A stretch of DNA of 30,058 nt from a virus (lineage: Duplodnaviria > Caudoviricetes), in IMG/VR virus record IMGVR_UViG_3300049485_000020, positions 1-30,058 of that record; one strand, 5' to 3'. The translations under genes were made by a program, and so were the position numbers. A model generated the notes under the pieces. It had not been told where the DNA came from. It made no database searches and worked only from the letters and a program-made list of their open reading frames with translations. Below are positions 10,450 to 29,766 of this stretch, one piece after another. Position 1 is the first letter of the stretch. Each line of letters opens with the position of its first letter.

Positions 10450-10487
10450 ATGAGTACAATTAATACAAGTAATTTCGCAAAAGCCCT
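10450..10487 (+). CDS. Major capsid protein, exon 1
   Basis: ATG 10450 gives MSTINTSNFAKAL; ends in T, the group I 5' splice-site U; joins exon 2 in frame. Confidence 0.88.
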
Positions 10488-11282
10488 TAACTAAATAGCC
10501 AGGGGGCACTGAAGAGTAATCTTCTTTTAAAAATCCATCGAATTGCGGGGACATCCTTATGGACAATCCGCAGCTAAGCCGGGAGGCACATGATTATTTA
10601 TAGAGCTTTAAATACCATAAACGGTAAATCTTACATTGGTTTAACCACTTTAGACTTAGGTCAACGAAAACACAAACATTGGCTTAACTCTAGAAATCCA
10701 GATAAAAATAAAAAACAAGCCTTTTATCTGGCAATCAACAAATATGGGTGGGAATCTTTTGAATGGCAAGAACTATGTTCTTGTTTAAATAAAAAAGATT
10801 TAAGTGAACTTGAAAAACAATTTATCAAGGAATATGATACATACAACAATGGTTACAATAATACCGTTGGTGGTGAAGGTGTTGACAATCCTAAAAAATT
10901 GGAAAAGTACATTGTAAGGTTTCCAGATCAAACAGTACATATAGTAGAGGGCTGGAAAAAGTTTTGTCGTGAACATAACCTTAACGAAGGTAATTTGTGG
11001 CACACATACAATCCATACAAAAGAACTTACACTATAAAAGGTAAGCACTACACATACTGGATGAAAGCTAAAGCGTGTAAAGGTTATGTGCTTCTCGGAA
11101 AGTTCAACGACTATCTGGGAACAGAGTACATCCAAGTGGATGGAAGCGGTGGACTCCAAGCAGAGATTAATGCCTGTTTGGATGATGATATAGTCTTCTC
11201 TAACGAGCAATCGTTAGCAGGAACAAAAGAACCAACTTTTGTTTCGGATACAGAATAACAATCTGTGTTGAAAATCACCAGG
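10488..11282 (+). mobile_element. Self-splicing group I intron (IA-like, 795 nt) in the major capsid gene
   Basis: IGS GCCAG-GGGGC (10498-10507) pairs the 3' exon CUGGC and the 5' exon GCCCU (U.G); P AATTGCGGG, Q AATCCGCAGC, R GTTCAACGACTA, S GATATAGTC; P3 TCCATCG/CGGTGGA; P2 and P9 with GNRA loops; terminal G. Confidence 0.95.
10590..11258 (+). CDS. Intron-encoded GIY-YIG homing endonuclease
   Basis: IIY-x10-YIG, conserved R, E and GYN motifs, then a small HTH-like DNA-binding segment; GGAGG SD. Confidence 0.92.
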   Translation: MIIYRALNTINGKSYIGLTTLDLGQRKHKHWLNSRNPDKNKKQAFYLAINKYGWESFEWQELCSCLNKKDLSELEKQFIKEYDTYNNGYNNTVGGEGVDNPKKLEKYIVRFPDQTVHIVEGWKKFCREHNLNEGNLWHTYNPYKRTYTIKGKHYTYWMKAKACKGYVLLGKFNDYLGTEYIQVDGSGGLQAEINACLDDDIVFSNEQSLAGTKEPTFVSDTE

Positions 11283-12153
11283 CTGGCCTGGTGTACGTAA
11301 ATGGTGGGGTGACGCTTATGATGCATGGCCTGTTGAGTATCTAGATATTTTTGACAAGTTTACATCCGATAAAAACTTTGAAGAAGAAGTTGGTTTCTCA
11401 GGGTTTGGTTTGTTTGCTATTAAGCCTGAAGGCGCTGCTACTGGTTATGACAGTGCACGTCAAGGGTTTATCGCTCGCTATCGTCATGATACCTATACCC
11501 TTGGTTTTATCATCACCAAGGAAATGATTGAGGATGACCAGTATGGTATCATTGGCCAAAAACGTGCTTCAGCTCTGGCTGAGTCAATGCGTGAAACCAA
11601 GGAAGTTGTTCATGCTAATGTGCTAAACCGTGGGTTTAATAGCTCATATGTTGGTGCTGATGGTAAAGAACTATTTTCTACTAGCCACCCTATGTTCTCA
11701 GGTGGTACTTTTAGTAATACTTTGGCTGTTGCTGCTGACTTGTCTGAAGCTGCTCTTGAGCAAGCATCAATTGATATTTCTAGTTTCACCGATGACCGTG
11801 GTAACAAGAAAAAATTTATGGCTAAACGCCTCATTGTTCCTAAAGAACTGGTGTTTGAGGCACAACGTATTTTGAAGACTGATGGTCGTGTTGGTACTGC
11901 TAATAACGATTTGAATGCTTTGAAGACTTTAGGTATTATTCCTGAAATGTCTGTCAATCATTATTTGACTGATGCAGATGCTTGGTTTATCAAGACCAAT
12001 GCTACTGACGGCCTTAAGACTTTTGAGCGTGTTGCTGATAGTTTTGATGACACTACCGACTTTGATACTACTAACTTGAAGTATATGGGTCGTATGCGTT
12101 TCGTTGCTGGTTGGACAGATCCTCGTGGAGCTTATGCCTCACCTGGTGCTTAA
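11283..12153 (+). CDS. Major capsid protein, exon 2 (spliced product 302 aa)
   Basis: Open frame begins (L)WPGVRKWWGDAY..., upstream of the track's 11410 start; 38+871 = 909 nt; capsid-like motifs LGFIITKEMIEDDQY, LIVP, GWTDPRG. Confidence 0.9.
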
Positions 12154-27150: not shown

Positions 27151-29766
27151 TTATGCACCACAAGTGCCACCTTTACCTGTAATAGAGCAAATATCCACTT
27201 CGTCAAATATTACGTCTTTGTTCTGGAGAGCTTCTTCGTAAGGAACAGAAGTTAGTGGTTGACCTCCTCTACTTCCATCTGGATAGCATGTAAATCCTCT
27301 GAGTCTAGGAGCATACTTAGCAAGAGTCTCTGCAAAACTCTGCACTTTTGTTTCGTTGTTGTCTTCTGATCCCCAAGCGGGGAGATTAATAGTGGAACTG
27401 ATTGACATATCAACGTAATCTTGTATATCTGCCTGGAAGGCAATTCGCTGCTCATACTTTGTACTCAAATCCAATGCCGACTCAATTGAACTAGGGTCCA
27501 CACCGTACTTACTGATAAGGCCACTAGCAGTGCCGTCCACAACATATTGGTACTTCCACTTAGTACCTTCTGTAAGGAACCTACGTTTGTACGCCACTGC
27601 AAAAAGAGGCTCAATTCCAGTAGTAGTACCAGCAAGGATACCAATACTTCCCGTAGGAGCGATGGCACGATAGGCAACAGGATGACTAAGGAAGAAACGA
27701 TCACAATGTTCGTCCGCGGCTCGTTTACTTTCGTCACGATATACTTTAAGCCATTCATGAAGCGTTTCATTTACTTGATAGGGGAGTTTTCTTTGAAGGA
27801 GCCATTCATGAATTCCCATGAGTCCAAGACCGAGCCTCCGATTTTTCTCACGAACCTTGTATACTTTTGTGTAGGGTAGGTCAGCACGGAGAGTTCCACA
27901 GACGAGGAACTTTGAAGCGAGCGATACAACGCTCTGAAACTCCTCCAAACTCTTAATGTTACCCATGTTAATAGAACCAAGATTGCATACGTCTGAGTCA
28001 TCTTCAGATGTAACTTCTGTACAATTTCCCGTAACGATCCCATTAAATGTTCCTGTTCCATTTTTAGCATCCGTAAAACAGAAGGTCTCCACAGCATTTT
28101 GGGCTGATTCAACTGAGACCACCGTGACAAACCTTCGTGCGTCCCGTTGTGGTTTATCGCCATGTAGTACTGCCCGGTGACAGCACAGGCCCTGTTGAAT
28201 AAGGCTGTAAGTGTCTGTATTACCAATTAGCAGTCGATGAGTTTCCTTACAATAGTACTCAGCACTACCACCCTTACCATCAGGCATTTCACGGAGACCT
28301 TCATCGTCACCTGATACCACCTTGGCACGACAACCTAGTTGAGTAAGCATCAGACGTACATCTAACAAAAACTTCCTATTTGTGGAACAAATTTGAATAC
28401 CATTTCCGTTAATGTCACGTGTCACCGTTCCATCAGAATCAATCAGACCTGCAAGCCACTCTAAACAATAAGTCTGATATTTACCTATAGGCACATAGTC
28501 CTTAGGCAGCATTTGTCCGTGTGTCCAGACATACCTATTTGTTTTTTCATTAAAACTTGATACCTTCCCTTTTAGGAAGGGAATTACACTTTCCTTTGGC
28601 TTGTAAATCCAGGAGTGATTGAGGCCTGTGTTGCCATCACCAGAGTAAAACCCCTGACTGTATCCACTAACTCCTACATTAACACAGTAGTCTGGTGATT
28701 TAATAATTGGCATTTCAAACTTAGCAAGGAGGTTACCTACCTGTAAATCTCGTGCCTCAACACGAGAACCATCCGCTAAACACCATTTGTGATAAGGAGT
28801 GCATTCTAGGGAGGTACCATCAGATAAAGATACCAGTACTGTGGAATTAATACCTGTGCTGAATGGAACTACATCGCTCCACTCTATTCCATTCCAAATC
28901 GTTGTAATTTGTCCAACACGATCCTGAATTTGTTTGTAACCACTAGACGTAAGGATGGGTGTTTCCCCTGGAACACATGCGTTACGAAGCGTTTCATTTT
29001 GCTTACTACCAAAGTTAAAGCTAAAACCAGGCTCACCTGTCATAAGAGCTTGTCGACAGTTCTCTAGGAATACGGGGTTATTCTCATTGAAGTTCCATGC
29101 ATCATCGTAGTTTACACTAATGTTTGTCATGTCCAATGGGGCAGCAAAGTTGAAATCTTGCTGCTTAATGTCATGGGCTGTTAAACCACTGGTACCAATA
29201 GGTTGATGCTTCCAGTCCTTGACGTGTAGGAAGGCCTTAATATCCTCATGCTGCCAATTGAGAGAAGCATAAATAGCAGATCGGCGTGAGCCACCTTGCA
29301 TTACGTTACGGCCAATCTCATTGATAGCAGACATCAAAGGTACGGGACCAGATGCTGTACCCCCCGTCCGGCCAAGTGCTTTGCCTGCAGGACGAAGGCG
29401 GCTATAATCAATACCAATACCACCACCCGTCATCAAACAAGACATTGCCCTCCAGGTAACAGCACTCCACTCCTCCCTTGTGTCTTCCTCTGCGCGAAGC
29501 AAATAGCAGTTGTTATATGCCTTATACTCCCGACCAGCATAATACAGATAACGTCCACCAGGGATAAATTTCATTTCCTTGATGTATTCAACAAGCTGTT
29601 TACGCTCATTGTCTGACATAAGCTTGGGCTGTGTTCCCCACCTAGTACCACAAACATCTTCTACAAGGCGCTCAGCAAGTTTATCCCAAGTGTCTCCAGG
29701 TCCTTGTGCATATTTAAACCTAAAGATGTTCTCGCCAAAACTGTTCTTAAACCGAGATGTTTCTAT
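27151..29766 (-). CDS. nrdJ: Class II (adenosylcobalamin-dependent) ribonucleotide reductase precursor with intein
   Basis: FIPGGR, NCY, GGGIG, GGSRRSA, N-A-C-T-E (split by the intein), CNLGS, AIAPTGS, C-terminal Cys pair; frame is open 49 codons upstream of the track start, to ATA 29766. Confidence 0.88.
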   Translation of the reverse strand: METSRFKNSFGENIFRFKYAQGPGDTWDKLAERLVEDVCGTRWGTQPKLMSDNERKQLVEYIKEMKFIPGGRYLYYAGREYKAYNNCYLLRAEEDTREEWSAVTWRAMSCLMTGGGIGIDYSRLRPAGKALGRTGGTASGPVPLMSAINEIGRNVMQGGSRRSAIYASLNWQHEDIKAFLHVKDWKHQPIGTSGLTAHDIKQQDFNFAAPLDMTNISVNYDDAWNFNENNPVFLENCRQALMTGEPGFSFNFGSKQNETLRNACVPGETPILTSSGYKQIQDRVGQITTIWNGIEWSDVVPFSTGINSTVLVSLSDGTSLECTPYHKWCLADGSRVEARDLQVGNLLAKFEMPIIKSPDYCVNVGVSGYSQGFYSGDGNTGLNHSWIYKPKESVIPFLKGKVSSFNEKTNRYVWTHGQMLPKDYVPIGKYQTYCLEWLAGLIDSDGTVTRDINGNGIQICSTNRKFLLDVRLMLTQLGCRAKVVSGDDEGLREMPDGKGGSAEYYCKETHRLLIGNTDTYSLIQQGLCCHRAVLHGDKPQRDARRFVTVVSVESAQNAVETFCFTDAKNGTGTFNGIVTGNCTEVTSEDDSDVCNLGSINMGNIKSLEEFQSVVSLASKFLVCGTLRADLPYTKVYKVREKNRRLGLGLMGIHEWLLQRKLPYQVNETLHEWLKVYRDESKRAADEHCDRFFLSHPVAYRAIAPTGSIGILAGTTTGIEPLFAVAYKRRFLTEGTKWKYQYVVDGTASGLISKYGVDPSSIESALDLSTKYEQRIAFQADIQDYVDMSISSTINLPAWGSEDNNETKVQSFAETLAKYAPRLRGFTCYPDGSRGGQPLTSVPYEEALQNKDVIFDEVDICSITGKGGTCGA
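28024..28977 (-). mobile_element. Intein (318 aa) with LAGLIDADG homing endonuclease
   Basis: LRNA|CVPGETPIL...LECTPYHKW...GFYSGDG...WLAGLIDSDG...FNGIVTGN|CTEV; removal restores NACTE. Confidence 0.95.

Follow-up and report, generated by a model that had tools for sequence, protein, structure and literature searches.

The intron in the major capsid gene

The window (the whole stretch of phage DNA analyzed, 30,058 nt) contains a head module in which profile matches identify terminase, portal, and major capsid genes. The capsid gene is interrupted by a group I intron, and an open reading frame (ORF) for a homing endonuclease lies within the intron. The features of the locus are as follows.

10450..10487, + strand: major capsid gene exon 1 (MSTINTSNFAKA plus two bases of a Leu codon)
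10488..11282, + strand: group I intron, subgroup IA2 (795 nt; U.G at the 5' splice site, terminal G)
10498..10507, + strand: internal guide sequence (P1: 10503-10507 with exon 10483-10487)
10534..10574, + strand: P3 5' strand, P4, P5, and P6 5' strand (P and Q elements), from folding and alignment
10578..10587, + strand: predicted local 3-bp hairpin, GCC-GGGA-GGC (GNRA type; sequence identical in 18/18 homologs)
10579..10595, + strand: P6a 5' strand (Shine-Dalgarno sequence [SD] GGAGG at 10582-10586, 3-nt spacer, AUG at 10590-10592)
10590..11258, + strand: GIY-YIG homing endonuclease ORF (222 aa), in the P6a loop
11082..11098, + strand: P6a 3' strand, which is endonuclease codons 165-170 (GYVLLG)
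11102..11195, + strand: 3' part of the core (P6', J6/7, P7, P7.1, P7.2, P3', P8, J8/7, P7')
11200..11269, + strand: P9, P9.1, P9.2 (ORF stop TAA, 11256-11258, in the P9.2 loop)
11283..12153, + strand: major capsid gene exon 2 (Pfam Phage_capsid_4, E = 8.1e-13)

Exon 2 also matches the major head protein family PHROG 371 (E = 5.2e-18). In unspliced RNA the capsid frame reaches a TAA at 10492-10494; joining 10487 to 11283 gives a 302-aa open capsid frame, the third base of the Leu codon at the junction being supplied by exon 2. The junction, AK(A/L)L followed by WPG, is present in all 15 homologs with both ends parsed (20 examined). The insertion site is uninterrupted in 58 of the 60 capsid loci read, one of them at 90% identity, and the remaining two have another intron at a distance of 7 nt. 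In L014 (655-1500), and also in L015, a second group I intron is inserted into this capsid gene at a point 7 nt downstream of the window's site; it carries a different GIY-YIG ORF whose AUG lies 14 nt after Q and whose SD is not obvious. A read-through fusion of the endonuclease to capsid exon 2 was rejected, the two frames being one base apart in the window. Elsewhere in the window, a ribonucleotide reductase ORF (27151-29619, minus strand) has an internal LAGLIDADG domain at residues 386-463, which is probably an intein.

Rfam model RF00028 matched the intron with E = 4.4e-6 and 32-36 bits, under its gathering score of 50, because the ORF splits the model; at the gathering threshold there were 0 Rfam matches in the window, and the intron was seen by E-value alone. 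The core helices P3-P8 with the P, Q, R, and S elements are all present. The splice-site pair is U10487.G10503, the terminal intron base is G11282, and a P10 can be drawn in which 10498-10502 is complementary to 11283-11287. The intron is presumably of the self-splicing type.

We aligned 18 distinct introns, six of them retrieved by a query that contained the SD and 12 (the window included) without its help. Left out of the set were L318 (not a member), L348 (incomplete), and L006 and L316 (near-duplicates, removed before alignment A1). Twelve intron helices were 97.7% paired across the 18 sequences. Two-sided changes occurred at 27 of 67 intron pairs, a count reached in 0 of 500 shuffles and above all slid controls. 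In P1 all five pairs showed two-sided changes, with one row (L308) lacking a normal 5' end. P7.1 (11114-11125) and P7.2 (11129-11142), separated by GUA, were both 100% paired and showed two-sided changes. The presence of these two helices places the intron in subgroup IA2, which PMC3428280 defines by a P7.1 and a P7.2 that lie between P7 and P3' with GUA as their link.

Two sets of relatives depart from this anatomy. In L308 (400-770) the intron borders on unrelated DNA, with exon 1, P1, and the greater part of P2 missing, either through truncation or through an assembly join. L075 and L265 have the same endonuclease family and insertion site with another intron body (an added P5 extension, a shorter P8, and a different P3), which suggests that an ORF cassette was exchanged between intron backbones.

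The endonuclease frame and the P6a helix

The intron ORF matches the Pfam GIY-YIG family above cut-off (E = 2.3e-7) and the PHROGs homing endonucleases (E = 1.4e-21), and its top fold match is the I-TevI catalytic domain (E = 3.7e-3). Residues Y4, Y15, R26, E75, and N90 are invariant in the 18 endonuclease homologs; presumably they correspond to the I-TevI catalytic residues. On the strength of its N-terminal catalytic domain, the product is classed as a GIY-YIG homing endonuclease. A search of the genome collection returned one distant GIY-YIG protein and found no member of the window's endonuclease family, and among named phages matches were limited to the N-terminal domain.

An earlier note on this DNA had pointed to a 13-bp complementarity containing two G.U pairs between the endonuclease ribosome-binding site (RBS) and a strand just ahead of the R element. 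The complementarity is exact (10579-10591 versus 11086-11098; 13/13 positions pair, two as G.U) and extends to 17 bp (10579-10595 with 11082-11098), so that the whole AUG is covered. In whole-intron folding the pair probabilities were at least 0.99. Among 7489 plus-strand windows, the P6a 3' strand formed the best duplex with the 5' arm (-26.3 kcal/mol), the next-best partner elsewhere giving -19.4 kcal/mol. The loop closed by the helix, L6a, is about 490 nt long, and the partner strand lies about 500 nt downstream of the SD. As the earlier note also held, the helix is P6a, a long-range element of the intron; the hairpins of T4, Pf-WMP3, PPWS1, and ECO104 are local.

The long-range pairing is shared by the family. 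In all 17 homologs folded, 13-16 of the first 16 P6a positions pair long-range, with the main partner 493-519 nt downstream and helix energies from -16 to -28 kcal/mol. Covariation, one of the checks that the earlier note had called for, bears the helix out: pairing is kept in all 18 introns, with two-sided changes at three pairs (pairs 10 and 11 in 5/18, pair 12 in 2/18). These may represent just two events, the loop-sequence tree being mostly unresolved, and six of the 11 counted P6a pairs are invariant and hence uninformative on covariation. The two-sided changes cost the endonuclease a Val to Thr replacement, and a fourfold-degenerate G opposite C9 of P6a is fixed in 18/18.

GGAGG is kept in 18/18 introns, among them each of the 12 whose retrieval did not involve the SD. 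The pair at its central A is broken in 12/18, always via synonymous Leu codons on the 3' strand. An SD that is invariant while the opposite strand varies must be kept for something besides pairing. The proposal that the helix hides the RBS is thus borne out in the predicted fold of the window, where P6a takes in the SD and the entire AUG, and weakened in most relatives, in which the central A is unpaired (12/18) or, in L075, the AUG lies outside the helix. The start codon follows the SD at a spacer of 3 nt in eight sequences, 5 nt in six, and 9 nt in three; one of the 18 has none. L281 has ATC (331-333) where the endonuclease ATG is expected, and its ORF stops early in P8, so this endonuclease is possibly decaying or uses a rare start.

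Introns without an ORF in L6a offer a baseline. P6a is universal and, where short, begins with CC in 109/117; an SD-like word occurs in its 5' half in 1/117 of these introns. The shortest such introns have a P6a of 3 bp, so the SD part of the window's helix is an extension and no core requirement. The idea that the repressor is a helix of the intron itself is supported, with the qualification that the portion containing the SD exceeds that minimal P6a. In L078, L083, and L119, which have no L6a ORF, P6a reads CCGG-GAAA-CCGG and begins like CCGGGAGG of the window's family; an origin of the SD from a stem plus GNRA loop is speculation.

The ORF continues through the ribozyme core, as had been noticed earlier. 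It extends 51 codons beyond the point where R begins, or 58 when the count is taken from the P6a 3' strand, crossing P6', P7, P7.1, P7.2, P3', P8, S/P7', P9, and P9.1 before its stop codon falls in the loop of P9.2. Core read-through as a special property was rejected, since 53 of 54 sequence-frame combinations stay open past the start of R. Among annotated intron ORFs elsewhere, eight of nine end 16-97 nt past R and the ninth lies downstream of the core.

Codon comparisons separate the ORF into parts. Loop codons had 266 synonymous versus 326 non-synonymous alternatives with a strong third-position bias (third-position variability 0.37 versus 0.16 and 0.09), a pattern by which purifying selection on the loop-encoded protein is shown. 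For core codons the counts were six synonymous versus 48 non-synonymous, and for the codons of the P6a 3' strand nine versus three. Codons 165-170 fall within a beta strand (166-175) of the C-terminal domain predicted by AlphaFold, and residues 176-222, a variable tail encoded by the core, have pLDDT <50. Residues 165-175 thus look selected and folded, unlike the rest of the extension, judging from codon usage and the structural model. A stop ahead of the helix would likely harm the protein, and ribosomes must therefore cross the repressor strand. The long tail as a conserved part of the protein was rejected, given stops scattered from R+58 to R+154 among homologs, no protein selection, and the low pLDDT; beyond residue 175 it is likely a by-product of a stop-poor core. 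Such an overlap fits the idea of core creep, described in PMC3073962 as 3' extension of an ORF into the core, of variable length and without protein selection.

Recurrence of the layout and access of ribosomes to the start

In half of the viral collection we searched for sites where GGAG and ATG come soon after Q. The SD had to lie no more than 16 nt from the P6a base, and because the scan selects for SD position in this way it shows recurrence and gives no frequency. From 121 loci we removed 69 without R, 11 duplicates, five with a short P6a, and seven with a short ORF. This left 29 with an ORF between Q and R: six of the window's family, four without S, and 19 others. The long-range layout was scored where at least three of four SD bases pair with the strand before R, better than with any window inside the ORF. 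It was found in seven of the 19 non-family loci (L463, L470, L475, L477, L483, L493, L519), which belong to six protein clusters; 12 of the 19 fell short. The seven encode HNH or EndoVII-like proteins and interrupt nrdF, polymerase A, DnaB-like helicase, and another capsid gene. The capsid gene interrupted in L475 and L483 is of a different family (Phage_capsid_3). In two Vequintavirinae polymerase introns (L433, L438), a 12-bp P6a is closed by the ORF's 3' end, and the SD lies just past P6a in weak local structure.

Release of the endonuclease start by a T4-type internal late promoter, which drops the inhibitory arm, is excluded here by geometry: both arms of P6a are present in every RNA that includes the SD and the complete ORF, so this escape cannot work. 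A T4-type local hairpin with its 5' arm upstream of the RBS is likewise absent, the only local structure being the weak 3-bp hairpin. No sigma-70-like promoter was found in 10488-10590 by a scan to which phage-specific promoters are invisible; its nine sites versus 8.4 expected are at chance level.

Folding of truncated transcripts predicted the GGA of the SD to be open (0.82-0.99) when the RNA ends at or before 11085 and closed when it ends at 11100, which makes the co-transcriptional window proposed in the earlier note, before 11086 is synthesized, plausible as a time for endonuclease translation. Within it the local hairpin (predicted at -3.4 kcal/mol alone and -4.9 kcal/mol with flanks) is expected to occlude the final two G of the SD for as long as the P6a 3' arm has yet to be made, and it may stand in for P6a on nascent RNA. 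The SD-AUG spacer of the endonuclease is only 3 nt; across the phage's own genes the aligned spacers range from 2 to 10 nt, and several measure 2-3 nt (19 of 21 starts scored).

The account we lean toward, and hold to be somewhat probable, is that initiation is shut off in the folded intron and that nascent RNA yields the enzyme in a brief burst, after which the intron folds and splices. With transcription taken to run at 45 nt/s, ribosomes would have about 10 s to initiate before the 3' arm of P6a is made, and initiation in this interval would likely be weak given the 3-nt spacer and the local hairpin. Once the arm is transcribed, P6a would form, hiding the SD and AUG and ending initiation. 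A ribosome crossing codons 165-170 would unzip P6a and briefly re-expose the SD, a feedback that in most cases would fade. While ribosomes occupy the core, splicing would be held back, as happens in T4 td; after they leave the RNA, folding and splicing of the intron would go ahead. A toy branching model, in which all kinetic rates are assumed, gave 0.05-1.8 proteins per transcript for initiation at 0.005-0.1 per s, and runaway set in only from 0.3-0.5 per s with 2-4 s of opening. The layout is a recurring variant of a known conflict, and splicing is most likely delayed and not excluded.

The feedback could be given a larger role. In a true splice-or-translate switch, ribosome traffic would keep P6a and the core open, and the transcript would commit to nuclease and yield no capsid mRNA. 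Because the repressor strand is itself translated, the geometry permits positive feedback; the Min Jou pairing of MS2 is a precedent for a long-range helix opened by ribosomes (PMC11339067), and surplus I-TevI translation reduces td splicing. We nevertheless regard such a switch as distinctly unlikely. It needs the product of initiation rate and open time to be at least one (0.3-0.5 per s and 2-4 s, both assumed), a rate of initiation that a 3-nt spacer and a local hairpin make improbable. Furthermore, the long core overlap is neither conserved in length nor under protein selection, and, the host gene being the major capsid gene, lost transcripts would be costly (compare PMC3706429). The earlier suggestion that each transcript makes either nuclease or capsid mRNA accordingly went unsupported, since ribosomes leave the RNA and the feedback of the toy model dies below about 0.3-0.5 per s. 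The boldest form of the idea, that group I introns of phages repeatedly evolved a self-closing gene whose ORF length sets a kinetic timer independent of promoters and whose feedback commits single transcripts to nuclease or to capsid splicing, we consider unlikely.

P6a could also be a structural helix only, the SD and start codon having been drawn in incidentally because a long loop needs a long closing helix. Enzyme would then come from breathing, misfolded, excised, or cleaved intron RNA, and the nascent window would play no special role. The universality of P6a favors this reading, an SD close to the base of the loop would be paired in any L6a ORF, and the unpaired central A in 12/18 introns may allow leak from folded RNA. 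It seems rather unlikely all the same: helices of -16 to -28 kcal/mol would rarely open unaided, and the introns of Pf-WMP3, PPWS1, and ECO104 keep the SD outside the long-range helix, so enclosure is not required. That GGAGG is not a working RBS, the ORF being barely translated from AUG 10590 or beginning elsewhere, is in our estimation very unlikely. The 3-nt spacer in 8/18 introns and the ATC of L281 would agree with it; the similarly short spacers among the phage's own genes speak against it, as do a frame that is closed just 5' of the SD in the window, purifying selection on the loop, and the invariance of R26, E75, and N90. A burst of translation on nascent RNA thus remains the reading we prefer.

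Comparison with known systems

One close parallel is the T4 td intron with I-TevI, also a group I intron, whose P6 loop carries a GIY-YIG ORF; its RBS is sequestered, and the 3' end of that ORF forms P6a, P6, and P7. In T4 td a local hairpin is relieved by a late promoter (PMC2988022); here the repressor is the ORF's own codons 165-170. The core overlap is 20 nt in T4 td versus about 175 nt here, and the host gene here is a capsid gene, unlike that of T4 td. Derepressed translation of I-TevI lowers td splicing (PMC3073962, PMC2988022, PMC3014915; Gibb and Edgell 2010, via these reviews), and the same reviews describe ORF/core overlap in many introns and RBS sequestration. The earlier caution that overlap with the core occurs in other introns was thus well placed: it is published, as is interference between translation and splicing (T4 td; PMC3073962, PMC2988022).

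The polymerase intron of Pf-WMP3 with I-PfoP3I, like those of T7-like phiI/W31, is an IA2 intron whose ORF lies at P6a and runs through P6, P7, P7.1, and P7.2 (PMC3428280). Its enzyme is an HNH protein and its host gene a polymerase gene, versus GIY-YIG and capsid in the window, and its RBS lies inside stem P6b, which was proposed to lower endonuclease output (PMC3428280). On folding, that stem was local (partners within 14 nt), as were those of PPWS1 and ECO104, and a long-range lock shared with Pf-WMP3 was therefore rejected; the other four of the seven named introns folded gave mixed or weak predictions. The Bacillus thuringiensis nrdF intron with I-BthII resembles the window in being a group IA intron with a GIY-YIG ORF at P6a that spans P7 and R (PMC2248736). 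Its ORF is described there as beginning in the loop, unlike the window's, and the words ribosome, Shine, and RBS were not found in the main text of that paper.

Outside introns, the maturation gene of MS2 has an SD hidden by long-range pairing and a window created by delayed folding (PMC4615214). The Min Jou pairing is unzipped by a ribosome on another gene (PMC11339067), whereas here the ribosome would be on the repressed gene itself, and MS2 represents genome control in an RNA phage, with no ribozyme (PMC4615214, PMC11339067). As to the host gene, mycobacteriophage LittleE and lactococcal phage Tuc2009 also have an intron in the major capsid gene, and that of LittleE carries an endonuclease gene, as the window's does (PMC3706429). 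In LittleE, however, the HNH gene lies on the other strand and such a conflict does not arise; the capsid and the site differ as well (PMC3706429).

Pairing of an endonuclease RBS with its own 3' coding strand as P6a was not found in the text of the intron literature covered; structure drawings in published figures may already show it. The feature is genuine and conserved, in a mobile intron of an ordinary type. The conflict between splicing and translation is, in the reports covered, already published, and our finding leaves that picture unchanged; what differs is a long-range lock that the gene forms with itself, with no escape by promoter. T4 explains escape by its late promoter, a route that many phage introns do not have. 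The anatomy of the window excludes it and suggests that release would come from folding kinetics alone. Found with unrelated nucleases, the layout may be a common and under-described way to host a translated gene in a ribozyme, and the intron offers a small model of ribosome-ribozyme competition during transcription.
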